Assembly (NCBI GenBank): GCA_965371625.1
Contig: CBDUZE010000002.1
Span: 177,668 to 241,667, forward strand
Direction of reading: 5' to 3'
DNA length: 64,000 bases
Source of the DNA: an uncultured Alphaproteobacteria bacterium
GTDB taxonomy: Bacteria; Pseudomonadota; Alphaproteobacteria; CBDUZE01
Shown here piece by piece: positions 10,658 through 52,296 of the stretch. The notes beneath the pieces are model-generated. The model searched no databases, was not told where the DNA came from, and was given only the letters and a program-made list of their open reading frames with translations. Made by a program: the position numbers and the translations under genes. Each line of letters begins with the position of its first letter. The first letter of the stretch is position 1.

Positions 10658-10727
10658 TGCTCGAATTTCGGACGCCGGCAAGGTTAGAGCTACAGGCCGC
10701 GGACGCAGAGCCCCAGCATTGACGAGA

Positions 10728-11735
10728 TCACCCTTCTCGCCGAAACAGGGCGACCAAAAGGATAAGCACGACGGCCAAGCCGAGCACGATCGCCACCGGA
10801 ATTCCAACCGATGCCGTCACCGAGGGCGAGGTCGGGATGTCGGAAACGAAGGCCGGCTCGATGATGCGGCCGGCGTAAGGCAGGGTGCTCTGAAGCATCA
10901 TGGCGGTATGCTCCTCGTTGGTGAGGAGCCCGATGAGGACGTCGCGCGTCTCCAACATCGAGGCGCTTCGCAGCTGTTCCTGAAGATAGGCTCGCCGTTC
11001 CGCAGTGGTCGCGCGATCCTGCTGGCGCAACAGCTCGTCGGCCTCGGCGTACACCGTGGTCAGGAGCTCGTAGGCAAAGTCGGGATCGGTGTGGGCGAAC
11101 GAGATACGCCGGAACGGCTCGAGCTTGAGCGTCTTGATCTCGATCGACGATTTGAGATACCTGGCCAGCGATTCGACCGTGGGCTCCGACCAGGTGCCGA
11201 GATGAAAGAGCCCCCGGAGGCGTTGTTCCCATTCGAATCTCCTGCCCGTGGGCCGGATCCATTTCCCTTCCTCGGGCGCCCACGATGCTTCGTAGACCTT
11301 CTGGAGGTACCCGTACTTCTGCTGCAGCAAACGAGCCAGGGTAAGCGAGGAGATCACCAGCTCCAGACGGTCGAAGGTCGTCGCCTGCTGCCCGCCGAGG
11401 TCGAGTCCGAAGCTCCTCGCCACACCCTTGAGACGGCTCGTCTGGCCGCCGGACTGCCCGATCGCGCCGCCCTGGGAGGGCGCAACGATCATTGCCGCCT
11501 CGAACTGCGGCACGAAATTGCGCATGTCCCTGAGGCCGTAGAGGGCGCCCAGGAAAACCAGCAGAAGGAGCAGCCATTTGCCGCGCCACACCGACCCGAC
11601 GAGAACCCGCAGATCGATGAGCTCCTCGCTCACGGGTCCGGCGACGGCGGTCGGGGCCGGGACGACGCCGGGGCTGGCGACCCGCGGCGAGCCTTGGGCC
11701 TGGTAGTCGGCGGGCTCCGGAACCTGCTCTGCCAT
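10728..11735 (-). CDS. Wzz/chain-length determinant (PCP-1 polysaccharide co-polymerase)
   Basis: ATG 'MAEQVPEPADYQ' at 11735. N-terminal TM 'WLLLLLVFLGALYGL', a long periplasmic coiled region, and C-terminal TM 'GIPVAIVLGLAVVLILLVALF'. 336 aa, so no kinase domain. Confidence 0.7.
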   Translation of the reverse strand: MAEQVPEPADYQAQGSPRVASPGVVPAPTAVAGPVSEELIDLRVLVGSVWRGKWLLLLLVFLGALYGLRDMRNFVPQFEAAMIVAPSQGGAIGQSGGQTSRLKGVARSFGLDLGGQQATTFDRLELVISSLTLARLLQQKYGYLQKVYEASWAPEEGKWIRPTGRRFEWEQRLRGLFHLGTWSEPTVESLARYLKSSIEIKTLKLEPFRRISFAHTDPDFAYELLTTVYAEADELLRQQDRATTAERRAYLQEQLRSASMLETRDVLIGLLTNEEHTAMMLQSTLPYAGRIIEPAFVSDIPTSPSVTASVGIPVAIVLGLAVVLILLVALFRREG

Positions 11736-33840: not shown

Positions 33841-35376
33841 ATGACCGATCCGTTCATCTTGCGCCCGGGCGAGTTGACGCTCGGCGACCTGCGCCGACTC
33901 GACGATCCCGGACTCGCCGTGGTCCTCGACGAGGGCTGCGGCGCGGCGATCGCGGCGGCCCACGACGCCATCACCCGGGCGATCGCCGAGGAACGGCGCA
34001 TCTACGGCGTCAACACCGGCTTCGGCAGCCTCGCCGACACCCTGATCCCCGAGGACCAGATGCGCGAGCTGCAGCGCCGGCTGGTGTTGTCGAACGCGGT
34101 GGGAAGCGGCCCGTTGCTGCCCGACCGCGTGGTGCGGCGCATCGTGGTGCTCAAGGCCAACGCCCTGGCGCGGGCCCATTCGGGGGTCCGCCCGCGCCTC
34201 GTGGAGGCCCTGCTCGAGCTCTACAACGCCGGCCTCCAGCCTTGCATTCCGGGCAAGGGCTCGGTCGGCGCCTCGGGCGATCTGGCGCCCCTCGCCCACC
34301 TCGCGGCGGCGCTCATCGGGGTCGGCGAGATGCGCGTCGACGGCGAAGTGGCGCCGGCCGCCGAGGCGCTGGCCCGCGCCGGCCTCGAGCCCGTGGAGCT
34401 GGCGCCCAAGGAGGGGCTTTCGATGCTCAACGGCACCGAGGTCTCGACGGCGCTGGCGCTCGACGGCCTGTTCGCGCTCGAGGCGGTGTTCGCCGCCGCC
34501 CTGGTCGCCGGCGCGCTCAGCGTCGAGGCGGCGCTGGGCAGCGAGATCGCCTTCGCCGCCCCGATTCACGAGATCCGCGGTCAAGCGGGCGAGATCGAGG
34601 TCGCCGCGGTCTTGCGCCGGCTCCTGGCGGGAAGCGAGTTGCGCGTCCGCGCCGGCGAGAAGGGCCGCCTGCAGGACCCCTACAGCCTGCGCTGCCAGCC
34701 CCAGGTCATGGGCGCCTGCCTCGACAGCCTGCGCTTCGCCGCCGAGGTGCTGCTCCGCGAGGCCAACGCGGTGGGCGACAACCCGCTGGTCTTCGCCGAG
34801 GGCGGCGAGATCCTCTATGGCGGCAACTTCCACGGCGCCCCGGTGGCCATGGCGGCGGACCTGCTGGCGCTGGTGATCGCCCAGGTGAGCGGGCTCGCCG
34901 AGCGTCGCGTCGCCCTCCTGACCGACGCCAACATGAGCGGCCTGCCGCCCTTCCTGGTGGAGGGCAGCGGCCTCAACTCGGGCTTCATGGCGGCGCAGAT
35001 CGCGGCCGCGGCCCTGGCCAGCGAGACCAAGGCCCTGGCCCATCCCGGCAGCGCCGACAGCATCCCCACCGTGGCCAACTTCGAGGACTACGTCAGCATG
35101 GCCACCTACGCCTCGCGCCGGCTTTCGGAGATGGCCGAGAACGCCGCCACCGTGGTCGGGATCGAGCTCATGGCCGCGGCCCAGGGGTTCGGCTTCCACC
35201 GCCCGCTCACCACCAGCCCGGAGCTCGAGGCGGCGCTCGAGGCGCTCGCGGCGCGCGTCCCCCGCTTCACCGAGGACCGCTTCATGGCGCCCGAGATCGA
35301 GGCCATCAAGGAGCTGGTGCGGAGCGGCCACTTCCTGAGCTACCTGCCGCCCGGGCTCCTGCCCAGCGCCGCCTGA
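33841..35376 (+). CDS. MIO-dependent aromatic-amino-acid/histidine ammonia-lyase
   Basis: 'GSVGASGDLAPLAHLA' is the Ala-Ser-Gly MIO motif. 511 aa. No other hut genes nearby, so substrate (His vs Tyr/Phe) is unresolved. Confidence 0.85.
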   Translation: MTDPFILRPGELTLGDLRRLDDPGLAVVLDEGCGAAIAAAHDAITRAIAEERRIYGVNTGFGSLADTLIPEDQMRELQRRLVLSNAVGSGPLLPDRVVRRIVVLKANALARAHSGVRPRLVEALLELYNAGLQPCIPGKGSVGASGDLAPLAHLAAALIGVGEMRVDGEVAPAAEALARAGLEPVELAPKEGLSMLNGTEVSTALALDGLFALEAVFAAALVAGALSVEAALGSEIAFAAPIHEIRGQAGEIEVAAVLRRLLAGSELRVRAGEKGRLQDPYSLRCQPQVMGACLDSLRFAAEVLLREANAVGDNPLVFAEGGEILYGGNFHGAPVAMAADLLALVIAQVSGLAERRVALLTDANMSGLPPFLVEGSGLNSGFMAAQIAAAALASETKALAHPGSADSIPTVANFEDYVSMATYASRRLSEMAENAATVVGIELMAAAQGFGFHRPLTTSPELEAALEALAARVPRFTEDRFMAPEIEAIKELVRSGHFLSYLPPGLLPSAA

Positions 35377-35987
35377 CCGCGCCCGGCCCCGATCAGGCGC
35401 CAGCGGGCGTAGTCGGCGGCGTTGTCGACGTCGCTCAAGCGCTCGACGAAGGCCACCGAGAAGCGCGGCCCCAGGTTGGCCAGGGTGTCCTCGAGGGCGT
35501 GGACGCTCGACCAGCGCACGGCGCGAAAGAGGTCGGCGGGCGGCGGCGGGCGGCGCCGCGCCCCCACCAGCCAGTAGCCGCCGTCCTCGGCGGGGCCGAA
35601 CACCAGGTCGTGGCGGCCGAGCGCGGCGAAGGCCCGAGCGACGTGGCCGGCGCCCAGGCCCGGGATGTCGCTGCCGACGATGACCACCGGCCCCGGCGGC
35701 AGGATCTTGAGCGGCCGGGCCATGCGCTGGCCGAGGTCGCCCGGGCCCTGGGGCAGGCGGGGCAGACGCCTGGGCCAGAAGGCGCTCGCCGCGGCGAAGC
35801 GGTCGGGCGTGACGGCGAGCCAGCAGCGCCAACGCGGGTCATGCCCCAGGCGCGCCAGCACCGTGGTCGAGGTGGCGCGGTAGAAGCGCCGCGCCGCCAC
35901 CGCGCCGATCTCGCGCGCCAGCCGGCTCTTGACGGCGCCGAGGCGCGGCGCCTTCACCATCACCACCAGGTGGTTGACCAGGCCCAT
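35340..35987 (-). CDS. TIGR04282/DUF2064-family glycosyltransferase-like protein
   Basis: ATG 'MGLVNHLVVMVKAPRLGAVKSRLAREIG' at 35987. 'GSDIPGLG' and 'GPAEDGGYWLVG' motifs. Typically partnered with the upstream TIGR04283 GT2. Confidence 0.65.
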   Translation of the reverse strand: MGLVNHLVVMVKAPRLGAVKSRLAREIGAVAARRFYRATSTTVLARLGHDPRWRCWLAVTPDRFAAASAFWPRRLPRLPQGPGDLGQRMARPLKILPPGPVVIVGSDIPGLGAGHVARAFAALGRHDLVFGPAEDGGYWLVGARRRPPPPADLFRAVRWSSVHALEDTLANLGPRFSVAFVERLSDVDNAADYARWRLIGAGRGQAALGRSPGGR

Positions 35988-35995
35988 CGCCGGGC

Positions 35996-36682
35996 TCAGC
36001 CGTAGAGCCGCACCAGCAGCCGTGGCGGCACGCCGATGAAGTAAAGCCCCAGGCAGGCCAGGTTGCGGAGGCTGCGGCGCAGGTAGCCGGCGCGGCGGTA
36101 GCGCGCGGCCGAGGTGAGGGCGGCGGCCTCGAGCACGACCAGTCGCCTGGCGCCGATGCGGCGCACGATGTCCACGTCCTCCATCAGCGGCAGCGGCCGG
36201 AAGCCGCCGACACGCTTGTAGAGATCGCGATGGATCAGGAGGCCCTGGTCGCCATAAGGAAGCCCCAGCACCCGGCAGCGCCAGGCCACCAGCGCCTCGA
36301 GGCGGCGCGCCGCCACGTCCTCGTCGACGACGACGAAGCGAAAGACGGCGGCGCGCTGCGCGCTCCCGGCCGCGGCCATGAAGCTCCGCGCGGCCGCCTC
36401 CCAGCCCGCCTCGAGCGCGGTATCGGCGTGGAGGAACAACAACCACGGGCTGCTGGCCGCCTCGGCGCCGGCCGCGAGCTGGGAACCCCGCCCCCGCGCC
36501 GCCACGACCAGCCGCGCGCCGCCGCCCGCGGCGACGCTCGGGGTTGCGTCGCTCGAGCCGCCGTCGGCCACCACCACCTCGGCGACGAGGCCCGCGCGGC
36601 GCGCCGCCGCGAGCGCCGCGAGCGCGCGGCGAAGCTCGCCCGCCGCCTGATAGGCCGGGATCACCACGCTCACCTGGGCCAC
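35996..36682 (-). CDS. Glycosyltransferase family 2 (TIGR04283-like)
   Basis: 'VSVVIPAYQAAGELRRALAAL...VVADGGSSD...PYGDQGLLIHRDLY'. 8-bp gap to the DUF2064 gene. Confidence 0.7.
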   Translation of the reverse strand: MAQVSVVIPAYQAAGELRRALAALAAARRAGLVAEVVVADGGSSDATPSVAAGGGARLVVAARGRGSQLAAGAEAASSPWLLFLHADTALEAGWEAAARSFMAAAGSAQRAAVFRFVVVDEDVAARRLEALVAWRCRVLGLPYGDQGLLIHRDLYKRVGGFRPLPLMEDVDIVRRIGARRLVVLEAAALTSAARYRRAGYLRRSLRNLACLGLYFIGVPPRLLVRLYG

Positions 36683-36783
36683 CGCCCGACACCACCCGAT
36701 CGCTTGAACATTCCCCGATCATAGAGCAGATCGCCGGGGCCGCGGAGCAGCGGCTGCTTCTCGGGTCCCGCGCATGATCAAAT

Positions 36784-36807
36784 GTTCTTGTTTTGTTCGC
36801 TTCGTTC
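36784..36807 (+). promoter_or_regulatory. Alphaproteobacterial LexA/SOS box (GTTC-N7-GTTC) upstream of the radical SAM gene
   Basis: 'GTTCttgttttGTTCgcttcGTTC'. The first two half-sites sit at the exact N7 spacing. 16 bp upstream of the 36823 start codon. Confidence 0.5.
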
Positions 36808-36822
36808 TGCTAGCTTCGCCCC

Positions 36823-37914
36823 ATGGTCGATCTCGCGGCAAATCTGGCCGAGCCGGCGGCGCAACACGGGCGCGGCGCGCTCTCCAACGCCAGCGGGCGT
36901 TTCGAGCGCCTGAGCCGGGAACTCATCGACGACGGCTGGGAGCGGCCGGAGCCGGAAGCGCCGCGGCTGCGCACCACGGTGAGCCTCGACGCGAGCCGCA
37001 GCGTCATCGCCCACAACGACTCGCCCGACCTCGGCTTCGATCGCTCGATCAACCCCTACCGGGGCTGCGAGCACGGCTGCATCTACTGCTTCGCCCGGCC
37101 CAGCCACGCTTATCTGGGGCTCTCGCCGGGGCTCGACTTCGAGAGCCGCCTGTTCGTCAAGGCCGACGCCGCGCGGCTCCTCGAGGCCGAGCTCGCCCGG
37201 CCCGGTTATCGGCCGGCCCCGATCGCGCTCGGCACCAACACCGACCCCTACCAGCCGATCGAGCGGGAGTGGCGGGTGACCCGGGGGGTGCTGCAGGTGC
37301 TCGCCGCCCACGGCCATCCCGCGACCATCGTCACCAAGTCGGACCTGGTGACCCGCGACATCGACGTGCTCGCGCCGATGGCGGCCCAGGGGCTGGTCAA
37401 GGTGGCGCTCTCGGTCACCACCCTCGACGGACGACTGGCGCGCCGCATGGAGCCCCGGGCACCAAGGCCCAAGCGGCGGCTCGAGGCGATGCGCGCCTTG
37501 AGCCGGGCCGGGATCCCCACCGGGGTCATGGTGGCGCCGCTGATCCCGGCCCTCAACGATCCCGAGATCGAGGCCATCCTCGAGGCCGCGGCCGAGGCCG
37601 GGGCGCGGGAGGCGGGCTACATCCTGTTGCGCCTGCCCCACGAGATAAAGCATCTGTTCCGCGAGTGGCTCGATCAGCACGCGCCCCACCGCGCGGCGCG
37701 CATCATGCGCCTGGTGCGCGAGATGCGGGGCGGCCGCGACTATGACGCCACCTTCCATGAGCGCATGACCGGGACCGGGCGCTACGCCGAGCTGATCAAG
37801 CGGCGCTTCGACCTGGGGTGCCGGCGCTTCGGCCTCAACCGGGATCCGGCGCGGCTCGAGAGCCGCCGCTTCCGCGCCCCTCAGGCGGCGGAGGACCAGC
37901 TCGCGTTGTTCTAG
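36823..37914 (+). CDS. Radical SAM protein, PA0069 family
   Basis: 'CEHGCIYCFARPSHAY' CxxxCxxC motif. 363 aa. A family commonly found in LexA regulons. Confidence 0.8.
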   Translation: MVDLAANLAEPAAQHGRGALSNASGRFERLSRELIDDGWERPEPEAPRLRTTVSLDASRSVIAHNDSPDLGFDRSINPYRGCEHGCIYCFARPSHAYLGLSPGLDFESRLFVKADAARLLEAELARPGYRPAPIALGTNTDPYQPIEREWRVTRGVLQVLAAHGHPATIVTKSDLVTRDIDVLAPMAAQGLVKVALSVTTLDGRLARRMEPRAPRPKRRLEAMRALSRAGIPTGVMVAPLIPALNDPEIEAILEAAAEAGAREAGYILLRLPHEIKHLFREWLDQHAPHRAARIMRLVREMRGGRDYDATFHERMTGTGRYAELIKRRFDLGCRRFGLNRDPARLESRRFRAPQAAEDQLALF

Positions 37915-39081
37915 GGTGGCGCCCGCTCGAGGTCGCAACCCGCGCCATCTCCCAACTCGCGATCACGGCCTGTTGCACCCATCTCAGGGGCATGCAGGAA
38001 CGGTGCAACTAGGTATCCAAACCCCACCAGACGAACAAATTCGCGGCGCGCCGGAGCCCCCTGATGGGGTGCCGCGCGCTTTTCACAAGCGCCGCCGGCC
38101 AACGCGAGAACGGATTATCGCAACCAATAGTCGGTACACATCAATGACTTCGACAAATCTTGGTCGGGCGAAAACGTGTCGGCGTTGGTGGAAAACCAAG
38201 CTGGGAAAAGCAAGAACTACGGTTGATTAGGCACCCAGAGAGGTATAGTATGCGTTCTTCGATCTAAATGCGGGAAAGTATCTTCTAGGTACTTTATGGT
38301 GATTGCGGCCTCACTCCCATTTTGTACAAATTCGGCTTAAGAATCAACATCTTGCAGCCGTGTTGCGAGCGAGGCAAGGGGATACCTGGAGGCTCAATTG
38401 AGTTAGGTCGCCTATCCAGACCGATTTTGATCGGCACCTTATGGTGAGTCTCTGAGCATAGAAGTCACCGCGGATGCCAGCCTGGTGGCTGTTGTGACCC
38501 AGACGAGACGCTCGGATTGACCGACATGTCCCAATCGATGCTTTTGGGGGTGTGGCACACGAGAGACTGTAGGTATACGAACTGGCGTCCGTTTCGGCAC
38601 TCGGTCATTGGTTCTCTAGCCGGACGCCAGGACATCACTGACCCTGGCCGCTTTTCGCTCCTTCTGGTAACCGCGAGCCGCCCGTCAAACACTGGCGAGG
38701 CATTGCAATCAGGATTGGACCATAGAGGGAAGGTGTGGATCAGAACCCTCCGCGACGCAATCAGGATCGATTGGCATTTGACCGACCTGGTTCCCGGGCT
38801 TTGTTCGATAGCCAGAGACCAAATTGCGCATCGTTTATCACGTCTTGTTTCACGCCTGCTACAGGGTCAACCGCGCGCCCAATTCCCGGACCGCGGCTGT
38901 GGCATCATCATTTCCGGATTACCGGACAGGTCGAGAGGCTTGACGACGCGGCAGAAAATCCCTCCTGGGGCGCGAGCCAATCACTATGGCCATCACTCGC
39001 AGCTTCTTCTCACTTCATAGTGACCACGGTGGAAACAACTGGGTAACGTCGACTTTAGATCGGGAAGCAAAGGAGCACAAG

Positions 39082-39936
39082 ATGTGTACATTTTTGAAAT
39101 TTCTGCTTCTGAGTGTGAGTCTTCTGGTATACGCGGCCTATATCCCCGGGGCGCTCAGTCAAGACCCCAGTTTTGTAATGAAACGTGCGGTAAAGTATTT
39201 CGACGATACCGCCGTGCCGCAAATCATAGGAGGTACGATTGCAGATCCATCGGACTGGCCGGCAACGTTTGTATTTATTAGTCCTCAGGGTGGCGGCTGT
39301 ACGAGCACTGCAATTGGCCCAAAGGTAATCTTGACAGCAGCTCATTGCATTGGCGATAACGCTAAGGGTATTGTGGAACTGAATGGACGCACGGTGGCAG
39401 CTGCATGCTATCATCATCCTGATTACCACAACAACGTGTCGGACACTGATCCGAAATGGTCCGAAAAGGTATCTCCAGACTTTGCACTTTGTATAACTGA
39501 CGACCAGCTTGCAGGGTTAGATTTCGAGAACATCGATAAGGAGGGAACCGAGCTCAAGCTTGGGCAGACTATCCAACTTGTTGGTTTTGGATGCAATGCA
39601 ATCGGCGGAACGGACAACGGGTTTGGCGTTCTATATGAAGGCAATTCCGCCGTCCAGAGCCTGCCCACGCCACCGAGCTACTATACGATAACACTCGGTG
39701 GTGCGGCTGTCTGTTATGGAGATAGTGGCGGTGGAGCGTACGTACTCTTAAATCCACCGGCAAAGGCACGTCGGGTTTTGATGGGTGTGGCCTCTCGCGG
39801 CAACATCTCCACAAGATCCTTGCTCTCGACAACTAGCTTGTCTGGCTTTATTTCTTGGGCTGATTCCTTAGCCGGGCGACACAACACGAAGATATGCGGG
39901 ATAGATACCGGTGTTCCAGGGTGCAGATCGATGTAG
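39082..39936 (+). CDS. Secreted trypsin-like serine protease (S1 family)
   Basis: RBS 'aaggag' then ATG. Signal peptide 'MCTFLKFLLLSVSLLVYAAYIPGALS'. Propeptide then 'IIGG'. Catalytic triad 'LTAAHC', Asp, 'GDSGG'. GC ~48%. Confidence 0.8.
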   Translation: MCTFLKFLLLSVSLLVYAAYIPGALSQDPSFVMKRAVKYFDDTAVPQIIGGTIADPSDWPATFVFISPQGGGCTSTAIGPKVILTAAHCIGDNAKGIVELNGRTVAAACYHHPDYHNNVSDTDPKWSEKVSPDFALCITDDQLAGLDFENIDKEGTELKLGQTIQLVGFGCNAIGGTDNGFGVLYEGNSAVQSLPTPPSYYTITLGGAAVCYGDSGGGAYVLLNPPAKARRVLMGVASRGNISTRSLLSTTSLSGFISWADSLAGRHNTKICGIDTGVPGCRSM

Positions 39937-40010
39937 GACCCGATTTACCTTCACCCTAGAAATCATAAGACCAATTGTGATGTCCCCGGCATAATGAGGA
40001 GTGTATCGGC

Positions 40011-42113
40011 ATGCTGAGATTTGGGAATAGATTGACCATAATAGTAATTACCTTTTGTCTTACAGCGTCCACAAGTTCGCGCGGTGACATGGTTACCTTA
40101 TTCGTTGTTAGCTCCGCGATAACAAAAGACGTCGTCGAATATGTGGCAAGAATCGGCAAGCCCCAACGCATACACGTGAAGAAGGGTCAGAGATTTTCGG
40201 ATATTTTGAGAGCGCGATGCGGTCGCCTCAATAACAACTTCATTAATTTATTGAGAACGTCATCGGCGACAGAATTGGGAAAATTGTTGAATTTGGATTT
40301 TGCGTATGAAAGAGATCAATTTATAGAACTCCCTGCGTGTTTGAGTTTGCCACAATATACGGCCACAGAGAGAATAGTTGAAGAAGATGACAGCCCTTGG
40401 GATTATTTTTCCAATGACTCTGCAGGATTTATGTATTTTGAGACTCCATCGCCAATGGTGAAACGGATTGTGGCTACAGCGGCAGATGCTCCGACCACCT
40501 TTATGGACGCCTTTGGGCACTTGAATCCCGGCTTCACATCCTCGGGTATCATTCACGAAGGAGAAGTGGTTCAAGTACCAAAAACACCGGCTGTTTGGTC
40601 ATCTCTGCAAATTCGGCCCGATATCGCAGCGTTTCTCGAGCCGGTCTCAGATGTCCTTGCTCGGCTCTTGATGGAAGGAGGACAAACCCGAGAAACTGCA
40701 CTTATTGAGAGACCAGAAGAAATCATTCTGTATGCACCTCTAACTAATGCGCAGCTGGTTGAGTTTAAATCTTGTCAGGCATCACAGACCTCAACAAATC
40801 TTGACTATGCCTTTGACCCAATGGAGTTAACGAAAGTTATCACCGTCAACAAAAGGTTCCTCCAAGAAGAGCGGCGGTCGACCCCAGATAGGACGACAAT
40901 AGTGATCCCGGATACTGGTCTCTATACCCATGGGAGGACACCATTTCATAACGGACGCTTGATACTGGTCGATCGGTATAGTCCTAGCGATCCCTACGCG
41001 AGCATTCGTCCTTCATCCAAATACCCGTATCGTCATCACGGCACCTACGTAGCTTCAGTAGCCCTGGGGGGCGCGAGCTTTCTGCAGGCATTCGATGTCA
41101 TGGGAGTGGATATTAAGATTGCGCCTATTAATATAATCGAAGAAAAAGAAAGGATATGCTGGCGTTCAAATGCGGCTGCATACAGTTGCCCTTACCATCG
41201 CGTAAAGACGGAGGCTTTCAACAATGCAATGGCAAGTGCCGAGACTCACAATGCCATTCTCAATCTTAGCGTAGGGCGCCTAACACGATTTATCGGCCTT
41301 GAAAAATATCTGAATAAGGATAGTAGTATATTGTTCGTTGTGGCTGCTGGAAACGCCGGCCAGTCACTTTCGAAAAGAAAGACCTATCCGTCACGGTATG
41401 GCGGGAGCAATAATGATGGGAAGTACAATCTGATATCGGTGGCTGCGCTGGACTTAGACGGCTCGAGAGCTGGTTTTTCAAATTATGGAAGCGAATACGT
41501 TGACATCGCGGCACCAGGTTGTCGTCAGCGCGTGTTTGAATACAATGATGAGTCACGTAGCTTCAGCTTCCAGAGGAAATCGGGCACATCATTTGCAGCG
41601 CCGTTGGTCTCGTTTACTGCAGCATTGATCAAGTCCTTTTGGTTGGGCGCGTCGCCGCGTAAAATCAAACACCGCATTATCACAGCTTCGGATATTTCCG
41701 AAGAACTCTGGGGGAAGGGCGAAGTGGCCGGTGGGCGCATGCTAAATGTTGTGAAAGCGGTTTCTTTGTATCAAGACATAGTAGAAGCTAGAGCTGATGG
41801 AGAATCCAGACTTATTCGGGGTGAGATAGATTCAAATCATCGGATTTTCGAGTTTTGTGATGGGAGACTCACGCTTTACCGAAAGGATAACCCAGGGCGC
41901 CCGCAAATAAAGAAAATTACACCTATTGCAGACCCGACATCTCAGGAGCCGAGAATTCTGGTTTACTGGACCAATGTTGAGGGTGTATTGAGGCCTGAGA
42001 TATGCGCGCAACAAGAAATTACCATAAAGATAACAGAGGATTTTACCGGGCGGGTATACGAGTTACCGACAGATAGTATAATCGACGTTGTTTTTTCGGA
42101 GCGGTTGAACTAG
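40011..42113 (+). CDS. Secreted subtilisin-like serine protease (S8 family) with N- and C-terminal extra domains
   Basis: RBS 'gaggag'. Signal peptide 'MLRFGNRLTIIVITFCLTAS'. Catalytic 'VIPDTGL' (Asp), 'HGTYVASVALGG' (His), 'GTSFAAPLVS' (Ser). GC ~45%. Confidence 0.85.
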   Translation: MLRFGNRLTIIVITFCLTASTSSRGDMVTLFVVSSAITKDVVEYVARIGKPQRIHVKKGQRFSDILRARCGRLNNNFINLLRTSSATELGKLLNLDFAYERDQFIELPACLSLPQYTATERIVEEDDSPWDYFSNDSAGFMYFETPSPMVKRIVATAADAPTTFMDAFGHLNPGFTSSGIIHEGEVVQVPKTPAVWSSLQIRPDIAAFLEPVSDVLARLLMEGGQTRETALIERPEEIILYAPLTNAQLVEFKSCQASQTSTNLDYAFDPMELTKVITVNKRFLQEERRSTPDRTTIVIPDTGLYTHGRTPFHNGRLILVDRYSPSDPYASIRPSSKYPYRHHGTYVASVALGGASFLQAFDVMGVDIKIAPINIIEEKERICWRSNAAAYSCPYHRVKTEAFNNAMASAETHNAILNLSVGRLTRFIGLEKYLNKDSSILFVVAAGNAGQSLSKRKTYPSRYGGSNNDGKYNLISVAALDLDGSRAGFSNYGSEYVDIAAPGCRQRVFEYNDESRSFSFQRKSGTSFAAPLVSFTAALIKSFWLGASPRKIKHRIITASDISEELWGKGEVAGGRMLNVVKAVSLYQDIVEARADGESRLIRGEIDSNHRIFEFCDGRLTLYRKDNPGRPQIKKITPIADPTSQEPRILVYWTNVEGVLRPEICAQQEITIKITEDFTGRVYELPTDSIIDVVFSERLN

Positions 42114-42202
42114 CGACGGCTACCAGAGATTCCTGGCCGGAGCGGTATTTCACTGCGGGGCCAAGTCGTGGAACAATGCTTCATTGGCCCGGCTACCGTG
42201 GC

Positions 42203-43024
42203 CTACCTCCCAACGAAAGTGCCCTTGCGGCGCTCGAGAAAGGCGCGGAGGCCCTCGGCCGCGTCGGCACTGGCGAAGAGCCGGCGCTGGGTGGGGCCGA
42301 AATCGGCGGCCGCCGCCTGGCGCCCATCGGTCAGTGCCTTGAGCGCCGAGGCGCGGGTCGCGGCGACGGCCAGCGGCGCCTGCCGGGCGATGGTAGCGGC
42401 GATCTCGAGGGCCCGGTCGAGCTCCTCGCCGGGCGCCGTCACCTCCTGCACGAAGCCCAGACGCAAGGCCTCGTCGGCGCCGAACTCGTCGCCGGTCAAG
42501 AGATAGCGCATGGCGTTGCCCCAGCCGGCGCGCTCGACCATGCGGATGGTGGCGCCGGCCGCCGCCATGATGCCGCGCGCCACCTCGTGCTGGCGGAAGC
42601 GGGTGTCGGCCGCGGCCACGGTGACGTCGGCGCCGAGCAGGAGCTCGATGCCGAGCGTCAGGCACCAGCCGCACACCGCCACCACCACCGGCTTGACGCG
42701 CAACGGCGGGCGCAGGCCGAAGGGATCGACGGTGCCCTCGGGCAACAGACCCTCGCCGGCGCCCATGCGGGCGACGAAGCGGTCGAGCTGGATGCCGGCG
42801 GTGAAGTTGCCGCCGTGGGCGAAGAGCACCCCGCATCTCAGGCCAGGATCGTCGTCGAGCTCCGAGTAGGCGGCCGAGAGCGCGGCCATCATCTCGGGCG
42901 TGAAGGCATTGAGCTTGGCCGGCCGGTCGATGCCGATCAGCAACAGATGGCCGCGCCGCTCGGTGGCGATCCGGCCCTCTGTGCCGAGCCGTGCCGGCGC
43001 CCCGTTCTCATTATCCTTGGTCAT
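42203..43024 (-). CDS. Enoyl-CoA hydratase/isomerase family protein
   Basis: Crotonase fold 'LLLIGIDRPAKLNAFTPEMMAALSAAYSELDDDPGLRCGVLFAHGGNFTAGIQL'. Confidence 0.8.
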   Translation of the reverse strand: MTKDNENGAPARLGTEGRIATERRGHLLLIGIDRPAKLNAFTPEMMAALSAAYSELDDDPGLRCGVLFAHGGNFTAGIQLDRFVARMGAGEGLLPEGTVDPFGLRPPLRVKPVVVAVCGWCLTLGIELLLGADVTVAAADTRFRQHEVARGIMAAAGATIRMVERAGWGNAMRYLLTGDEFGADEALRLGFVQEVTAPGEELDRALEIAATIARQAPLAVAATRASALKALTDGRQAAAADFGPTQRRLFASADAAEGLRAFLERRKGTFVGR

Positions 43025-43102
43025 CCCTTCGCTCCGCTTTATCCCTGATCGCGGTCCCGTGCAGCGGCCGCAATACCTGCAACGATCATGCTATCGTCGA
43101 TG

Positions 43103-43131
43103 TTGAAAACACAACATTTTTGTTGTATAAA
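43103..43131 (+). promoter_or_regulatory. Putative hicAB promoter (TTGAAA-17-TATAAA) with embedded palindrome ACAACA-ttttt-GTTGT
   Basis: Near-consensus -35/-10 in the only AT-rich stretch upstream of hicA. The inverted repeat at 43111-43126 overlaps the spacer/-10, as expected for an antitoxin operator. Confidence 0.4.
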
Positions 43132-43139
43132 GCCGTGGC

Positions 43140-43322
43140 GTGAATAGCAATCAGTTCAGAAGATGGCTGGCCAAGCAGGGCTGCACGTTTGGCAAGAAAT
43201 CCGGCGGCCACATCACTATATTTCGCGGTGGCAGAGAAAGCCAAATGCCGGTGCACGGCGGCCGCAAGCAGCTCGGCAAAGGGCTTATGGCAAAGGTCAA
43301 GAAGGATCTAGGACTAGAATGA
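43140..43322 (+). CDS. hicA: HicA-family mRNA interferase toxin
   Basis: 60 aa 'MNSNQFRRWLAKQGCTFGKKSGGHITIFRGG...MPVHGGRKQLGKGLMAKVKKDLGL' carries the HicA dsRBD-like motif. GTG start. Confidence 0.75.
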   Translation: MNSNQFRRWLAKQGCTFGKKSGGHITIFRGGRESQMPVHGGRKQLGKGLMAKVKKDLGLE

Positions 43323-43750
43323 GGTACAGCTACCCGGTTGATTTGACGCCCGATGATAACGACACCCTGCTAGTGACGTTTCCCGACCTGCCGCCGGCCA
43401 CCACGTTTGGCGAAGACGAGGCGGACGCCCTGCTCCATGCCCGCGACGCTCTGACCGCAATGTTCGTCCATTTCATGGACGAGCGCCGGGCGATCCCGCG
43501 TCCCTCGAAGCCCAGGAAGGGCCAGCGGGTTGTCGAGGTAGCGCCCCTGGTTGCGGCGAAGCTCGCCCTTTACGAGGCCATGCGCGCCCAAGGGGTGACC
43601 AAGGCGGCGCTCGCCCGGCGGCTCGATTACCACGGCCCACAGGTCGACCGGCTGCTCGATCTCCATCACAAATCGCGCCTCGAGCACCTGACGCGGGCTC
43701 TTGCGACGCTCGGCAAACGGCTGGTGCTCGAGGTTCGCGACGCGGCTTGA
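43319..43750 (+). CDS. hicB: HicB-family antitoxin (RNase H-like N-domain plus C-terminal HTH)
   Basis: ATGA overlap with the hicA stop. 'LLVTFPDLPPATTFGEDEADALLHARDAL'. C-terminal HTH 'VTKAALARRLDYHGPQVDRLL'. Confidence 0.7.
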   Translation: MRYSYPVDLTPDDNDTLLVTFPDLPPATTFGEDEADALLHARDALTAMFVHFMDERRAIPRPSKPRKGQRVVEVAPLVAAKLALYEAMRAQGVTKAALARRLDYHGPQVDRLLDLHHKSRLEHLTRALATLGKRLVLEVRDAA

Positions 43751-43828
43751 GACCGCGCCGGCGTGGGGTTGACGACCGGACGCCCGAGTGAGCCCAGACC
43801 CGCCATTCCGCGTCCGCCCCGACCTCCG

Positions 43829-44412
43829 ATGCCTGACCTGAGCCTCGAGGCCCGGGCGCGGGGCCCGGCCGCCGGCATCGACGAGGCCGGACGCGGGCCC
43901 TGGGCGGGGCCGGTGGTGGCGGCGGCGGTGGTGCTCGATCCGGCGGCTATTCCCGAGGGCCTCGACGATTCGAAGAAGCTCAGCCCGGCCCGCCGCCGGT
44001 ACCTGTTCGAGGCCCTGGTGCCTTGCGCCCGGGTCGGCCTTGGCGCCGCCTCCGTCTCCGAGATCGACCGTCTCAACATCCTCGGCGCCACCATGCTCGC
44101 GATGGCCCGTGCGCTGGCCCGCCTCGGCCTGGTCCCGGCGCTGGCGCTGGTCGACGGCAACCGGGCGCCGGAGCTGCCGTGCCCGGCGCTGACGGTGGTG
44201 GGGGGCGATTCCCGCTCGCTTTCGATCGCCGCGGCCTCGATCGTCGCCAAGGTCACCCGCGACCGGCTGATGGCGCGCCTGGCCGCGGCCCACCCCGGCT
44301 TCGGCTGGGAACGCAACGCCGGCTACGGCACGCCCGAGCACCGCGCCGCGCTCTATCGGCTAGGGGTCACCCCTCACCACCGCACGAGCTTCGCGCCCAT
44401 ACGTAAGATATT

Positions 44413-46477: not shown

Positions 46478-47488
46478 CTACTCGCATTCCCTGATCGACA
46501 ACCCTTCCGGCAGCACCGTATCGCGATCACCGCAGGCTGTGTCGAGCTGATCCTGGACCAACCCCCTTGCCAGCTTGAGGTTGGCGCCGCGCAGGTCGGC
46601 ATTTCCAAGCACCGTAGCGGTGAGAATAGACCTTGCGAGGTTCGCGTCCTTCAAGACAGCGTTCCTCAAGTCGGCTCCTTCAAGGTTTGCTCTCCCCAGA
46701 TTGGACTTCGTCAGATTGGCGTCACGTAACACGGCTTGCTGTAGATTCGCTCGTTCCAGGTTTGCTGATTCCAGATGAGCACCTTGCAGCTGAGCGTTGC
46801 TCAGATCAGCTCTTTTCAGCTTGGCGCGGCGCAAGTCAACGCCGGTCATTATTGCTCCTCGCAGGATCGCCCTTTCCAATTCAGCAAATTCAAGGGTAGC
46901 TTTCGCGAGGTTGGCTTCGCTCAAGTCAGCCTCTTTCAGGTCCGCTCCATTCATTTTGCAGCCCGTGAGTATGGCGCGCACCAGGTTGGCTTTCTGCAGG
47001 TCCACTCGGCTCAAGTTGACTCGCTTGAGATCCGTGCCACTCAAGTCGGCTTTCTCCAGGTCGGCCCCACTCAACTTGGCCCCTCGCATTTTCGCCCCAC
47101 GCATGTTGGCCTTTTCCAATATGGCCCCGCGCAGATCAGCACCCCCGAGCATGGCCCCTGCGAGGTTCGCCTTCGACAGATCCGCCCCGTTCAAGTTCGC
47201 GGAGCTCAGCATGGCGCGACTGAGGTTTGCGCCATGAAGATCGGCCCGTGCCAAGTTGGCCGAATTCAGGATGGCCCGACTCAGATCGGCGCCTTTCAGG
47301 CTGGCGTTCTGGAGATCGGCGCGCGCCAGATCGGCTCCTTTAAGGTCGCAATTCGGGCATTCTCTCGTCGCCCTTAGCACGTCCACGCTCTTCTTATCGA
47401 AGGCGTGGCCATTGACGAACGGTACAAGCACAGTCGCTACGGCGATAGACGCAATCGTCAGCGTCTTCAGTCGTAGTTTTCTGGTCAT
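46478..47488 (-). CDS. Secreted pentapeptide-repeat protein (copy A)
   Basis: ATG 'MTRKLRLKTLTIASIAVATVLVPFVNGHA' signal peptide. Then about 50 A(D/N)LxxA(N/D)L pentapeptide repeats. C-terminal 'CGDRDTVLPEGLSIRECE'. Confidence 0.8.
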   Translation of the reverse strand: MTRKLRLKTLTIASIAVATVLVPFVNGHAFDKKSVDVLRATRECPNCDLKGADLARADLQNASLKGADLSRAILNSANLARADLHGANLSRAMLSSANLNGADLSKANLAGAMLGGADLRGAILEKANMRGAKMRGAKLSGADLEKADLSGTDLKRVNLSRVDLQKANLVRAILTGCKMNGADLKEADLSEANLAKATLEFAELERAILRGAIMTGVDLRRAKLKRADLSNAQLQGAHLESANLERANLQQAVLRDANLTKSNLGRANLEGADLRNAVLKDANLARSILTATVLGNADLRGANLKLARGLVQDQLDTACGDRDTVLPEGLSIRECE

Positions 47489-47697
47489 CACAGGTTCCTT
47501 CTCAAGTTCCAATCTGCTGAAAAGCCCCTCCTTTGTCACTGATTTGGGTGATACGTTTCCTTATCAAACCCTCCATCCGCATCCGACATTTGCGCCAATT
47601 GCCGTGCTCATGCTATCTCCGCTGGGCCAGTGGGCCGCCGAGAGCGAAGAGCATACCGTGGCCGAGTTGCCGCCGCGCGGCATCACTGCTCGGCGCG
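46478..47697. repeat. Segmental duplication copy A (about 1.22 kb, ~93% identical to 49091-50307)
   Basis: Identity starts exactly at the PRP stop codon and extends ~210 bp upstream of the PRP start. Small indels in the 5' flank. Confidence 0.85.
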
Positions 47698-48287: not shown

Positions 48288-48720
48288 TCAAGCAATACGA
48301 AGTTGATCATCGAGGCTGAAAACCGGTACTTCAACCCACTTCTTTAGGTGCGGCAAGGCCTTATTGCCTTCCTGATGGCACGCCATGCACGCGCTGCGAA
48401 CACCGGCGAATTTTTGCGAGGCCGGTGTCGCGACCATGAAGGTATGGGAGGAGACATCCCTTGGGTGTGGTTTACTGGCGGTCTTGTTTGAGCGATACCC
48501 GATCGTCGCCATATGACAATCGACGCATTTGACGCCAGCCTTCTCCATCGGGCTTCCCGCATACATCTTGGCATTGGGCCGCATGGCATAGCCGTTCTCG
48601 GAATGACAACTTATACACAACTTTTCAGGCTTCATGCGGAGTTAAGCGTTCTCCCATTTGCCGTGGAAGGTGTGACAGGTCACGCAGCTCATACCGGCCG
48701 TATTGAAGTGGGTACTCTTA
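48288..48720 (-). pseudogene. Fragmented multiheme c-type cytochrome (4 CxxCH motifs in two frames)
   Basis: ORF 48288..48635 has 'CISCH', 'CVDCH' and 'CMACH'. It has no signal peptide or TM. Immediately upstream, in another frame, 'PDFTKSTHFNTAGMSCVTCHTFHGKWENA*' carries a fourth CxxCH. This is consistent with a frameshifted and truncated NapC/NrfH-like or larger multiheme gene. GC ~52%. Confidence 0.5.
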
Positions 48721-49090: not shown

Positions 49091-50101
49091 CTACTCGCAT
49101 TCCCTGATCGACAACCCCTCCGGCAGCACCGTATCGCGATCACCGCAGGCTGTGTCGAGCTGATCCTGGACCAACCCCCTTGCCAGCTTGAGGTTGGCGC
49201 CGCGCAGGTCGGCATTTCCAAGCACCGTAGCGGTGAGAATAGACCTTGCGAGGTTCGCGTCCTTCAAGACAGCGTTCCTCAAGTCGGCTCCTTCAAGGTT
49301 TGCTCTTCCCAGATTGGACTTCGTCAGATTGGCGTCACGTAACACGGCATGCTGTAGATTCGCTCGTTCCAGGTTTGCTGATTCCAGATTCGACCGGTTC
49401 AAGTGAGCGTTGCTCAGATCAGCTCTTTTCAGCTTGGCGCGGCTCAAGTTAACGTCGGTCATTATTGTTCCTCGCAGGATCGCCCTTTCCAATTCAGCAA
49501 ATTCAAGGATGGCTTTCGCGAGGTTGGCTTCGCTCAAGTCAGCCTCTTTCAGGTCCGCTCCACTCATTTTGCAGCCCGTGAGTATGGCGCCCTTCAGGTT
49601 GGCTTTCTGCAGGTCCACTCGGCTCAAGTTGACTCGCTTGAGGTCCGTGCCACTCAAGTCGGCTTTCTCCAGGTCGGCCCCGCTCAACTTGGCCCCTCGC
49701 ATTTTCGCCCCACGCATGTTGGCCTTTTCCAAAATGGCCCCGCGCAGGTCAGCACCCCCGAGCATGGCCCCTGCGAGGTTCGCCTTCGACAGATCCGCCC
49801 CGTTCAAGTTCGCGGAGCTCAGCATGGCGCGACTGAGGTCCGCTCCATGAAGATCGGCCCACCCCAAGTTGGCCGAATTCAGGATGGCCCGACTCAGATC
49901 GGCACCTTTCAGATTGGCATTCCGGAGATCAGCGCGCGCGAGATCGGCTCCTTTCAGGTCACAACCCGGGCATTCTCTCGACGCCCTTAGCACGTCCATA
50001 CTCTTCTGCTCGAAAGCGTGACCATTGACGAATGGTCCAAGCACAGCCGCTACGGTTATAGACGCAATCGTCAGCGCCTTCAGTCGTAGTTTGCTGGTCA
50101 T
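49091..50101 (-). CDS. Secreted pentapeptide-repeat protein (copy B)
   Basis: 336 aa, a near-identical paralog of 46478..47488 with the same signal peptide and repeat array. Confidence 0.8.
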   Translation of the reverse strand: MTSKLRLKALTIASITVAAVLGPFVNGHAFEQKSMDVLRASRECPGCDLKGADLARADLRNANLKGADLSRAILNSANLGWADLHGADLSRAMLSSANLNGADLSKANLAGAMLGGADLRGAILEKANMRGAKMRGAKLSGADLEKADLSGTDLKRVNLSRVDLQKANLKGAILTGCKMSGADLKEADLSEANLAKAILEFAELERAILRGTIMTDVNLSRAKLKRADLSNAHLNRSNLESANLERANLQHAVLRDANLTKSNLGRANLEGADLRNAVLKDANLARSILTATVLGNADLRGANLKLARGLVQDQLDTACGDRDTVLPEGLSIRECE

Positions 50102-50307
50102 CACAGGCTCCTTCTCAAGTTCTAATCCGCTGAAAAGCCTCTCTTTTGTCACTGATTTGGGTGATACGTTTCCTTATCAAACCCTCCATTCGTATCCGGA
50201 ACTCGTGCCAATTGCTGTGCTCGTGCCATCTCCGCCGGGCGAGTGCACCGCTGAGAGCGGAGAGCATACTGTGGCCGAGTTGCGCCGCGCGGCATCACTG
50301 CTCGGCG
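49091..50307. repeat. Segmental duplication copy B
   Basis: See copy A. Confidence 0.85.
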
Positions 50308-50610: not shown

Positions 50611-52296
50611 TCAGTGGCCGCCAGCGGCGCTGCCGCCCACGACGATGGGAACGCTTTCCAGAATCTCGAAGCTCACGGCGGTGAAGGCGTACATGGCGCC
50701 GATCAAGACGAACACGCAAAGCGGTCCGACCCAGGCGCCGTGCCGACCGATGGCCGCACCGCCCCAGGAGACGCTCGATAGATCCTCGATGCCTTGGCCC
50801 GCGCGGCCGACCTCTCCGACCAGACTCCGCACGAGGGCGTAGACGTACACCGCCAGCGCGACCGTCATGAACGTGGCGCCGATACCGACGACACCCATCG
50901 CCGTCCCCCAGACGAAGGGAGCATCGCCTTCATAGCTGAGGTCGAAGAGACGCCGCGGGACGCCCTTGTATCCGGCCACGAGACCGGCGCTGCCGAACAG
51001 CAGCAGCCCCAAGGTGGTGACGTAGGGCATCCTGGCGAGAAGCGATGGGCGCCAGATTCGGCCCCCCGCCAGCGCCGGGATCACGTAGATCAGGGCGGCA
51101 ATGAAGGTGAGCGTGACCGTGCCCAACGTCAGGAAGTGGAAGTAGCCCGGTACGAAGAAGGTATCGCTCAACAACAGCGCCAGCTTCTCCTGAATGAGCA
51201 CGAAGGAGAACACGCCGCCCAGGGCGAGATTGATCACCGCCATCCCGATCGCCGCCATCGCCGGATTGCTCCAGGGGAGCATACCCACCCACCCGAACAG
51301 ACCGCGGGCACCTTGGGCCCTGGCGTGCGATTCGAGCGAGGCGACGATGATCAAAAACACCAAAATCGTCGGCACGGCGATGAACAAGGAGAGCAGTGAC
51401 CCGGACATCCGCACGGCGTCGGCCAACCCGGGCTCGAGGAACATGTGGTAGAGCGAGGTGGGCGGCACGAAGATCAGGTACATGGCGAAAACGAATTTCG
51501 AGACGCGCGCTCCGAAAATCGATTTGACCCCGGTGATGACCTCGACCAGCACGTACCAGATCACAACCGTGGCCATGAGCGGCAGGTAGTGCATGTTGTG
51601 GAACAAGACGTGCCAGCTCATGGTGTAGCCGGAGACCTCGGGCCCGAGCCCGAACGCCCACAGCATGGCGGGCAGAAAGGCGTTGACGCCGGCGACGGCA
51701 CTGACCATGAGCAACCCGGCCCAGGCCACGGAGGCGAAGGCAATCGAGGACCAGGTGTCGATCTTGCCCGCGAGCTTGGGGCGCAGCGCCGTCATCAGGC
51801 TCGAGGCGGCGACCACGAAGAGACCGGCACTGAGCAGGATGTAGCCGAGATAGAAGTAGCCCGCCTCGGTCATCTCGAACTCGACCAGCTCCGGATTGCC
51901 GTCGTAGAGCAGGATCGCTCCCAGGTTGGGCGCGATCTCGCTCAACACGAACCCCGCGGTCATCAGGATCAGGCCCAGCCACGCCAGCGGTCGCCAGGCG
52001 ATGCCTTCGCTGCCATCGGTGTAGACGCTGGCCAGGATGAGCACGAAAGCCGCCTGCATGAAGTAGAGCCAGTAAAAGAAAATGGTGGTTCCATGCAGGC
52101 TCAGCATTGTGTACGCCGTCTCCGGCCCGAGCTCGACAAAGCCAGCGCGGTCGAAGGCCGAAAACGCGCCGTAGACGAGTCCCAAAGCCAGGGCGACGAT
52201 GGCCAGGGCGGTGAAACTCAACAGCAGCCTCTTGTCTCCCTGGGGAAGGGCCTTCAGGCCCTCGACCAGTGGATTCTTGATCGCTTTCTCAGTCAT
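50611..52296 (-). CDS. Heme-copper oxidase superfamily subunit I-like protein (divergent)
   Basis: 561 aa, at least 12 TM. His residues are spaced like HCO helices II/VI/VII/X ('LSLHGTT', 'WHVLFHNMHY', 'YHMF', 'YFHF'). Canonical HH and HxH appear as YH and YxH. RBS 'ggagcag'. Confidence 0.7.
   Translation of the reverse strand: MTEKAIKNPLVEGLKALPQGDKRLLLSFTALAIVALALGLVYGAFSAFDRAGFVELGPETAYTMLSLHGTTIFFYWLYFMQAAFVLILASVYTDGSEGIAWRPLAWLGLILMTAGFVLSEIAPNLGAILLYDGNPELVEFEMTEAGYFYLGYILLSAGLFVVAASSLMTALRPKLAGKIDTWSSIAFASVAWAGLLMVSAVAGVNAFLPAMLWAFGLGPEVSGYTMSWHVLFHNMHYLPLMATVVIWYVLVEVITGVKSIFGARVSKFVFAMYLIFVPPTSLYHMFLEPGLADAVRMSGSLLSLFIAVPTILVFLIIVASLESHARAQGARGLFGWVGMLPWSNPAMAAIGMAVINLALGGVFSFVLIQEKLALLLSDTFFVPGYFHFLTLGTVTLTFIAALIYVIPALAGGRIWRPSLLARMPYVTTLGLLLFGSAGLVAGYKGVPRRLFDLSYEGDAPFVWGTAMGVVGIGATFMTVALAVYVYALVRSLVGEVGRAGQGIEDLSSVSWGGAAIGRHGAWVGPLCVFVLIGAMYAFTAVSFEILESVPIVVGGSAAGGH

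Follow-up and report, generated by a model that had tools for sequence, protein, structure and literature searches.

We found that a stretch of 64,000 nucleotides (nt) from an uncultured Alphaproteobacteria bacterium (contig CBDUZE010000002.1, positions 177,668 to 241,667; hereafter the window, whose first letter is position 1) carries a low-GC islet of 4315 nt at 37913-42227, or up to 42248 if a divergent patch in the adjoining enoyl-CoA hydratase (ECH) gene is included. The islet encodes an S1A serine protease followed by an S8 subtilase, and it was inserted in this lineage, the same site being empty in two relatives that are 99% identical to the window. We think it probable, with some reserve, that the islet is a foreign insert of 4.3 kb which entered by one-sided recombination, and that its cargo is one exported S1A-S8 functional unit.

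The islet and its empty site

An initial annotation of the window had pointed to a low-GC islet at 38040-42160, between a radical SAM gene (36823-37914, +; Pfam PF04055, 65.9 bits) and the convergent ECH gene (42203-43024, -). When the composition was followed in segments of 400 nt, GC was 0.71-0.77 up to about 37800-37900, fell to 0.43-0.58 until about 42200, and then returned to 0.74. Over the whole islet it was 0.505 versus 0.679 in the remainder of the window, which is the minimum of all 4.3-kb stretches in the 64 kb (mean 0.667, standard deviation 0.047). GC at third codon positions (GC3) was 0.50 in the S1 gene and 0.47 in the S8 gene, compared with 0.93 in the radical SAM gene, 0.92 in the ECH gene and 0.86-0.96 in the other neighbours. 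The islet was thus confirmed, and its true borders proved to be wider than first drawn, lying at 37912/37913 on the left and inside the last 15 ECH codons (42203-42248, -) on the right. These codons are ECH-like, diverged and lower in GC3, while the remainder of the ECH gene (42249-43024, -; Pfam PF00378, 126 bits) is native DNA, as is the high-GC radical SAM gene. The leftmost 198 nt of the islet (37913-38110), which hold no gene and are missing from the empty-site relatives, have a GC of 0.66, so that this segment is invisible to composition alone.

The empty site was reached through members of 90%-identity clusters of the flanking proteins. It was found in two metagenomic contigs from different samples, L084 (ENA ERZ26661914, 5021 bp) and L086 (Logan SRR22302374), which are identical to each other and match the window at 99% nucleotide identity over 34671-37912 on the left (3242 nt) and 42214-43957 on the right (1744 nt). 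In both contigs just 22 bp, and nothing else, separate the radical-SAM and ECH stop codons, and this original intergenic stretch is gone from the window. The left junction cuts through the radical-SAM stop codon, which reads T|AG in the window and T|GA at the empty site. On the right, ungapped identity runs from 42214 on, with 7 mismatches packed into 42218-42248 and a background of about 1% after that. The last nine ECH codons of the window are in frame and of equal length, use lower-GC codons and change three amino acids, so that the protein ends in RKGTFVGR versus RAGAFEGR at the empty site.

The initial annotation had proposed horizontal acquisition, to be doubted if close relatives carried the same genes at the same locus with similar GC, and the two contigs show the opposite. 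An empty site in relatives so close indicates that the islet is a recent insertion. Presence and absence alone give no direction, and by themselves they would suit an islet that is ancestral here and was deleted in the L084 and L086 lineages. We regard such a deletion as hardly credible. It could not have recreated the native high-GC ECH end seen at the empty site, and the cargo is unameliorated, its GC3 of 0.47-0.50 standing against 0.92-0.96 in a genome where third positions are strongly ameliorated; both points set the direction as gain. Moreover, the closest cassette relative, L088, also has a GC of 0.47 and lies in another context. With its atypical composition and its presence/absence polymorphism among close relatives, the islet has these two marks of a genomic island.

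At the radical-SAM stop codon L084 carries a tandem duplication, GTTGTTCTGA GTTGTTCTGA, at its positions 3234-3253, and L086 carries it at the same place; the window has one GTTGTTCT there, followed by AG. The duplication could be either the footprint of an earlier event or merely a local duplication.

Entry of the islet and origin of its cargo

The re-encoded ECH 3' end suggested that the incoming DNA brought its own ECH-like 3' end and that the crossover fell inside the ECH gene. We infer that the islet entered by homology-facilitated illegitimate recombination, a process reportedly described in 2002 by de Vries and Wackernagel and by Prudhomme et al., or by a comparable one-sided recombination. 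The donor DNA, of about 47-50% GC, would already have had S8 tail-to-tail with an ECH homolog. Its right end would have joined through short homology to the ECH 3' end and its left end without homology, which would have placed the insert between the convergent radical-SAM and ECH stop codons of a high-GC alphaproteobacterium. Homology-facilitated illegitimate recombination is known to give rise to small variable segments that lack an integrase, and such segments form one of the major classes of diversity within species (PMC2884548).

The islet might instead be the remnant of a site-specific integrative element, placed at the ECH 3' end by a tyrosine recombinase, with the recombinase gene and the att repeats decayed since; we consider this unlikely. 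Integrase-mediated islands typically swap the 3' end of their target gene for a homologous copy that the element carries, and the ECH 3' end has been swapped for an incoming copy here. The 1.17 kb free of genes at one islet end would be what is left of the element, and on plasmid pColt5.8a a related cassette has a tyrosine recombinase gene some 5 kb away. Nevertheless, no integrase, recombinase or transposase domain was found in any islet frame with Pfam, NCBIfam and PHROGs at E<=0.1, a check that in the 5' part covered all stop-free frames of at least 45 amino acids (aa) in 37880-39120. Local alignment against shuffled sequences found no significant direct or inverted repeat at the islet ends, and the displaced native ECH 3' end was not found at the left end, where 183 of 500 shuffles scored as well; the loss of the original 22-bp intergenic stretch also speaks against an integrative remnant. 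The leftmost segment (37913-38110) resembles neither the displaced ECH 3' end nor the islet's right end at a significant level, and a reverse-complement match at about 38068-38092 (p about 0.04, uncorrected) is not relied on. The window as a whole gave no transfer RNA (tRNA) gene, no Rfam family and no repeat beyond chance level, and the 5' part of the islet had no Rfam match at E<=1. The initial annotation, which had listed neither integrase, transposase, tRNA nor direct repeat, thus agrees with the profile, tRNA and repeat searches. One-sided recombination accordingly remains our preferred route of entry.

For the origin of the cargo, composition was compared with that of related cassettes. 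The L001 cassette has a GC of 0.63 versus 0.62-0.63 in its host and the L092 cassette 0.645 versus 0.67-0.69, whereas the L088 cassette stands at 0.47 against flanks of 0.57-0.58. The window copy, at 0.47-0.51, is like the L088 lineage, so that the GC of the donor was probably about 47-50%. The closest relatives of both proteases are metagenome contigs, and the named, more distant ones belong to Hyphomicrobiales, often on plasmids. The names in the ECH protein cluster mark the host as an alphaproteobacterial metagenome-assembled genome. An expectation of the initial annotation, that the nearest neighbours lie outside Alphaproteobacteria, was not borne out; the named relatives of both proteases are alphaproteobacterial.

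The S1A protease

The first islet gene (39082-39936, +) encodes an S1A serine protease precursor of 284 aa. Its start was set at the ATG at 39082, six nt past AAGGAG (39070-39075), rather than at 38986 as in the list of open reading frames (ORFs), because a normal signal peptide results. The S8 gene is preceded, nine nt upstream, by GAGGAG at 39996-40001, so that the two co-oriented protease genes with strong ribosome-binding sites are as initially annotated. Pfam PF00089 (Trypsin) matched with 40.4 bits against a gathering cut-off of 20.6 (E 3.9e-10), over residues 80-272 of the 316-aa ORF. Among 24 homologs, H88 (TAAHC), D133 (SPDFALC), S215 (GDSGG), D214 and eight cysteines are invariant.

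The precursor reads as an S1A zymogen. A signal peptide is predicted at about residues 1-26, a hydrophobic leader ending ALS|Q, followed by a putative propeptide at 27-47 and a mature chain that would begin at I48 (nt 39223). The propeptide has 21 residues with a conserved F-x-M motif and ends VPQ|IIGG; the IIGG at residues 48-51, where cleavage is predicted, and the invariant D214 are both features of S1A zymogens. The best match in the PDB was human neutrophil elastase with its relatives (E 3e-8), mainly over some 45 N-terminal residues, and the alignment begins at residue 48.

The protein had first been called a eukaryote-like trypsin, of which the S1A fold with its IIGG stood, and the specificity and the kinship did not. 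Trypsin owes its cleavage after Lys or Arg to an Asp at the base of the S1 pocket, chymotrypsin position 189. Here that position is Ala (A209, six residues before the catalytic Ser), nearly invariant across the family; trypsin specificity is thus not expected, and Trypsin is the name of a fold only. All 137 homologs at E<=1e-3 came from bacterial genomes or metagenomes, and those with names were alphaproteobacterial (Sinorhizobium medicae, Prosthecomicrobium, Roseobacter and Caulobacter).

The S8 subtilase

The second gene (40011-42113, +) encodes an S8 subtilase precursor of 700 aa, with 95.7 bits to Pfam PF00082 (Peptidase_S8) against a cut-off of 21.8. D301 (DTG), H343 (HGT), N448 and S527 (GTSFAAP) are invariant in alignments of 17 and 13 sequences, and so are five cysteines. 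The initial annotation had asked that the catalytic residues of both proteases be functional on alignment; with both triads invariant among homologs, S1 and S8 keep an intact catalytic machinery. The S8 precursor is laid out as a predicted signal peptide (about 1-23), an N-region (24-296; nt 40080-40898), the catalytic domain (about 297-582) and a C-terminal domain (583-700; nt 41757-42110). Its close homologs are 13 sequences at 36-49% identity, all metagenomic, and the next is from Mesorhizobium loti at 26%.

The N-region of about 270 aa is rare and, on profile matches, family-specific. A profile of residues 24-296 searched against 1.84 billion cluster representatives found 127 at E<=1e-3, of which no more than 14 reached E<=1e-30; almost all of the 127 are 650-750 aa long. 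In an AlphaFold model made from the 13-sequence alignment (predicted local distance difference test score, pLDDT, 76.5), a beta-alpha-alpha-beta unit comes first, followed by a second such unit with a poorly predicted insert and then by an alpha/beta segment. The consensus hxVxxGQTxxDhxxxxCG...YxxLL...LPxC resembles LysM. As Pfam LysM (PF01476) gave no match to the full S8 protein at E<=0.01, these modules are termed LysM-like and are unproven, and the modelled N-region may be read as two such modules followed by a prodomain. One family member, P0194, has a PG_binding_1 domain beside the N-domain, and short members of about 600 aa have no second LysM-like module. The C-terminal domain, of 118 aa, is all-beta, with no clear or close structural match.

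Several named subfamilies were tried for S8 with NCBIfam and rejected: type VII mycosin (TIGR03921; 68.3 bits against a cut-off of 278.75), PrtP (30 against 300 bits) and PatA (27 against 421 bits). A scan of genome contigs with the S8 patterns LFVVAAGN and NLITVAALD, which are generic to S8, returned 80 loci, all with unrelated subtilases, and a single-protein scan of metagenome contigs gave no match. Exact look-ups with the window S8 and with the 316-aa ORF version of S1 led to no contig.

The S1-S8 pair in other bacteria

S1 followed directly by S8 was found in at least five independent loci, that is, in every related locus with enough sequence. In the closest relative, L088/L089, the order is a lipoprotein of 173 aa, S1 (68% identical) and S8 (49% identical). 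The same order with lipoproteins of 443 and 346 aa is seen in L092/L093 and L001/L002. In L090, on the Rhizobium rhizogenes plasmid pColt5.8a, a 167-aa lipoprotein, a trypsin-like protease and S8 are encoded by overlapping genes, and in L003 an S1 gene is followed by an S1::S8 fusion. Adjacency is kept across these loci at identities of 27-49% for S8 and 30-67% for S1. Ten S8 homologs come from source contigs equal in size to that of an S1 homolog, which is indirect evidence of pairing. Furthermore, the similarity of a homologous S1 to its window counterpart was correlated with that of its S8 partner (Spearman rho 0.83, n=12 pairs, p=8e-4).

The two proteins are also found in one chain. Fusions of trypsin, N-domain and S8 were seen in 8 of 8 tested N-domain matches of about 900 aa and in P0015, so that they number nine or more cluster representatives. 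They align with the window S1 from its residues 47-64 on, at 21-37% identity over the S1 part. Most fusions have an AxA-type signal cleavage site directly before IVGG, IING or VISG, so that signal peptidase would expose the activating N-terminus without a propeptide.

These results show that the pair is conserved, co-diverging and sometimes fused. What the initial annotation called a protease pair is such a module rather than an arbitrary combination. The repeated adjacency, the co-divergence and the fusions suggest that S1 and S8 act jointly outside the cytoplasm. Literature searches turned up no account of an S1-S8 cassette.

Some of the neighbourhoods were recorded for their own sake. L003 (385-20174; JGI 3300075321, Ga0633495_0001183) lies near a caspase (Peptidase_C14)-GH25 fusion, DUF3859, a PP2C phosphatase and a 1136-aa protein kinase-helicase, and looks like a variable, conflict-type region. 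Around the L090 cassette (pColt5.8a 116590-133960) are a tyrosinase-family gene, genes for a PIN-domain and a DUF2971 protein, a tyrosine recombinase gene and IS66 elements. L091, on Sinorhizobium meliloti pEm1132a (NZ_CP148087.1, 82679-93721), is a cluster of exported hydrolases comprising an M4 metallopeptidase, two hypothetical genes, a serine hydrolase, an 800-aa S8 and an M12 metallopeptidase. The S8 of L091 is more distant, its C-terminal half, including the C-terminal domain, being 31% identical to the window S8, and similar genes are present on several Sinorhizobium megaplasmids.

The 5' segment and the upstream lipoprotein genes

The 1.17 kb from the left junction to the S1 start contain no recognisable gene; they consist of the leftmost 198 nt and a gene-free segment of about 1 kb (38111-39081) with a GC of 0.48-0.57. 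The earlier statement that this part holds no convincing gene was upheld, as its stop-free frames (up to 190 aa) had no match in Pfam, NCBIfam or PHROGs. The segment had no blastn match in plasmids and no tblastx match in the related loci, and no tblastn match was obtained with three of the lipoproteins.

At this same place related cassettes carry a lipoprotein gene. It has a lipobox and lies immediately upstream of S1 in four of the five independent relatives (L088, L090, L001 and L092). The four lipoproteins have lipobox and position in common and almost no sequence; the sole match among them was one stretch of 45 residues (E 0.001 in a six-sequence database), and a database search with the L088 lipoprotein detected no homolog. 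With so little sequence in common, a decayed copy would be hard to see.

Proposed function of the pair

Three hints point to the cell envelope: the hydrophobic N-terminal leaders on both proteins, the invariant cysteines (five in S8 and eight in S1), and the upstream lipoprotein genes in four loci. Both proteins had been called secreted, which their signal-peptide-like N-termini bear out as far as sequence can tell. We therefore propose the following scheme. The Sec pathway would carry both S1 and S8 across the inner membrane. S1 would be activated on removal of its 21-residue propeptide, which exposes Ile48, and in the fusions signal peptidase would do so directly. S8 probably has a prodomain and glycan-binding modules, and its LysM-like modules would hold the subtilase on a glycan surface, either peptidoglycan or another polymer of N-acetylglucosamine (GlcNAc). 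There the two would act on extracytoplasmic protein substrates, either as a complex or in a short activation cascade. As a guess, one protease matures the other, or both form a complex on the cell wall or on a GlcNAc-polymer surface, and the role could, again as a guess, be antagonism, predation or protein scavenging.

Several points weigh against our reading. The donor and the recombination mechanism are deduced from one junction only. The window has no upstream lipoprotein ORF or remnant of one, so that its cassette may be an incomplete or a differently regulated copy. The 5' segment of about 1 kb presumably holds the promoter of the protease genes, yet none was identified and a promoter-like scan did no better than shuffles. 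Homologs without a partner exist, such as the S1 in L094, which has no downstream S8, and the S8 in L087 (Mesorhizobium loti). The activation order is a guess. Finally, the catalytic His of S1 is replaced in four of the nine fusions, by Q, I, S or V in P0015, P0203, P0215 and P0253, where the motif reads TAAQC, TAAIC, TAASC or TAGVC; the other fusions keep AHC. The S1 partner is thus not always a protease, which weakens a simple cascade model, and the loss of the His in four fusions favours a physical partnership over a purely enzymatic relay. The locus that encodes the His-less P0015, L003, has a separate intact S1 gene just upstream.

We also weighed whether S1 and S8 could be two independent scavenging exoproteases that hitch-hike without functional coupling. 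Bulk degradation is a common task of secreted S1 and S8 proteases, and both classes are carried by the predatory outer-membrane vesicles of Myxococcus (PMC9738627), which implies no kinship to the islet pair; in addition, some homologs are single. This view is decidedly unlikely, as it does not account for the adjacency across divergent loci, the rho of 0.83 or the fusions in at least nine representatives, nor for the catalytically dead S1 domains that are kept in fusions.

Another candidate was an intracellular conflict or anti-phage system akin to subtilase-containing defences such as IetAS, which we hold to be highly improbable. PADLOC returned weak matches of S8 to IetS (PDLC02197; 19.1 bits, E 7.9e-5, residues 341-461 only) and to 'subtilase' (E 0.002), and NCBIfam matched IteS at E 0.0085. 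These scores lie far under their cut-offs (IteS, NF042956: 14.4 against 900 bits) and reflect the generic catalytic core only, so that the identification of S8 as an IetS/IteS anti-phage subtilase was rejected; the islet has no IetA-type ATPase gene that could be its partner. Several relatives lie in variable regions with PIN, DUF2971, caspase, kinase-helicase or toxin-antitoxin genes, and a HicAB pair adjoins the islet in the window. On the other hand, signal peptides, invariant cysteines and lipoprotein neighbours indicate the envelope, and there is no PHROG or phage link beyond the generic protease family.

A more far-reaching version of our preferred reading, an exported S1A-S8 unit on a foreign insert, is tentative and, on balance, rather doubtful. 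According to it, S1-S8, usually with the lipoprotein, would be an undescribed mobile envelope protease system in which S1 is the obligate complex partner of a glycan-tethered subtilase and, in some lineages, catalytically dead. It might serve, for example, cell-wall antagonism or self-remodelling, with the lipoprotein as inhibitor or anchor, and the window would carry a copy that lacks the lipoprotein and has only just passed into a new host.

The islet is a textbook-quality case of very recent gene gain without a mobility gene, with base-exact junctions, one of them inside a coding sequence whose end the donor DNA replaced. If the LysM-like tether and the complex are true, the pair would be a new two-protease module of rhizobial plasmids and of soil and water bacteria, with a bearing on bacterial antagonism or plant-microbe surfaces. 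If they are not, it would simply be a pair of scavenging exoproteases.

Other features of the window

The islet closes with a tail of 89 nt (42114-42202) between the convergent S8 and ECH stop codons, in which searches gave no convincing terminator and no structured RNA (fold z-score -0.57). Directly past the ECH gene, a HicA toxin (43140-43322, +) and a HicB antitoxin (43316-43750, +) occupy a second GC dip (0.545). Unlike the protease islet, this pair is not polymorphic here, the 99%-identical L084 alignment (42214-43957) spanning both genes. More dips were seen at 5001-6000 (0.567) and 10001-11000 (0.545), whose longest ORFs (5165-5908, +, and 9527-10807, -) have no Pfam family and which may be other small acquired segments. 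Two paralogous pentapeptide-repeat proteins of 353 aa are encoded at 46478-47539 (-) and 49091-50152 (-), with a 115-aa multihaem-cytochrome-like ORF (48288-48635, -) between them. The 4-kb region around these genes has a GC of 0.56-0.59, and a COX1-family oxidase subunit (50611-52296, -) comes next.

Comparison with known systems

The islet S1 was compared with known S1A proteases, namely Streptomyces griseus trypsin, VesA/B/C of Vibrio cholerae and eukaryotic elastases. It has in common with them the chymotrypsin fold, the His-Asp-Ser triad, TAAHC, GDSGG, the His-loop cysteines and a zymogen-type IIGG paired with an Asp next to the catalytic Ser. However, it is only about 20-30% similar to any solved structure, has Ala in place of Asp at position 189, and carries a propeptide that ends in Gln or Leu instead of Lys or Arg and contains the F-x-M motif of its family. 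A C-terminal extension (ICG...GCR) that adds a cysteine pair and the genetic tie to a subtilase set it apart further.

The islet S8 has the Asp-His-Ser triad and the oxyanion Asn of S8 subtilases with prodomains (subtilisin/kexin-type enzymes, mycosins, dentilisin PrtP, lanthipeptide LanP and PfSUB1), but it fails every curated subfamily cut-off and has its own N-region and all-beta C-domain. With LysM hydrolases and LysM effectors or receptors (Ecp6, CEBiP, EPR3 and NlpC/P60 with LysM) it has a beta-alpha-alpha-beta sequence pattern in common, and a paralog of it carries a bona fide PG_binding_1 at the equivalent place. It differs from these proteins in the lack of a Pfam LysM match, in an invariant Cys in the first helix region of its modules and in the long insert in the second module.

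As a piece of DNA, the islet is like other small integrase-less islets in being short (<10 kb), strain-variable, free of mobility genes and placed between conserved genes, with one junction in homology and the other without. It differs from them in a very short visible anchor, about 46 nt of diverged sequence plus the crossover, and in that its mechanism is read from the junctions only. A classical integrative genomic island would have an integrase gene, a tRNA or transfer-messenger RNA (tmRNA) target and flanking direct repeats, none of which is found here. Secreted protease operons on small islets are already known, and nothing in this one is categorically new; what it adds to them is a base-exact empty site and the rare S1-S8 module.

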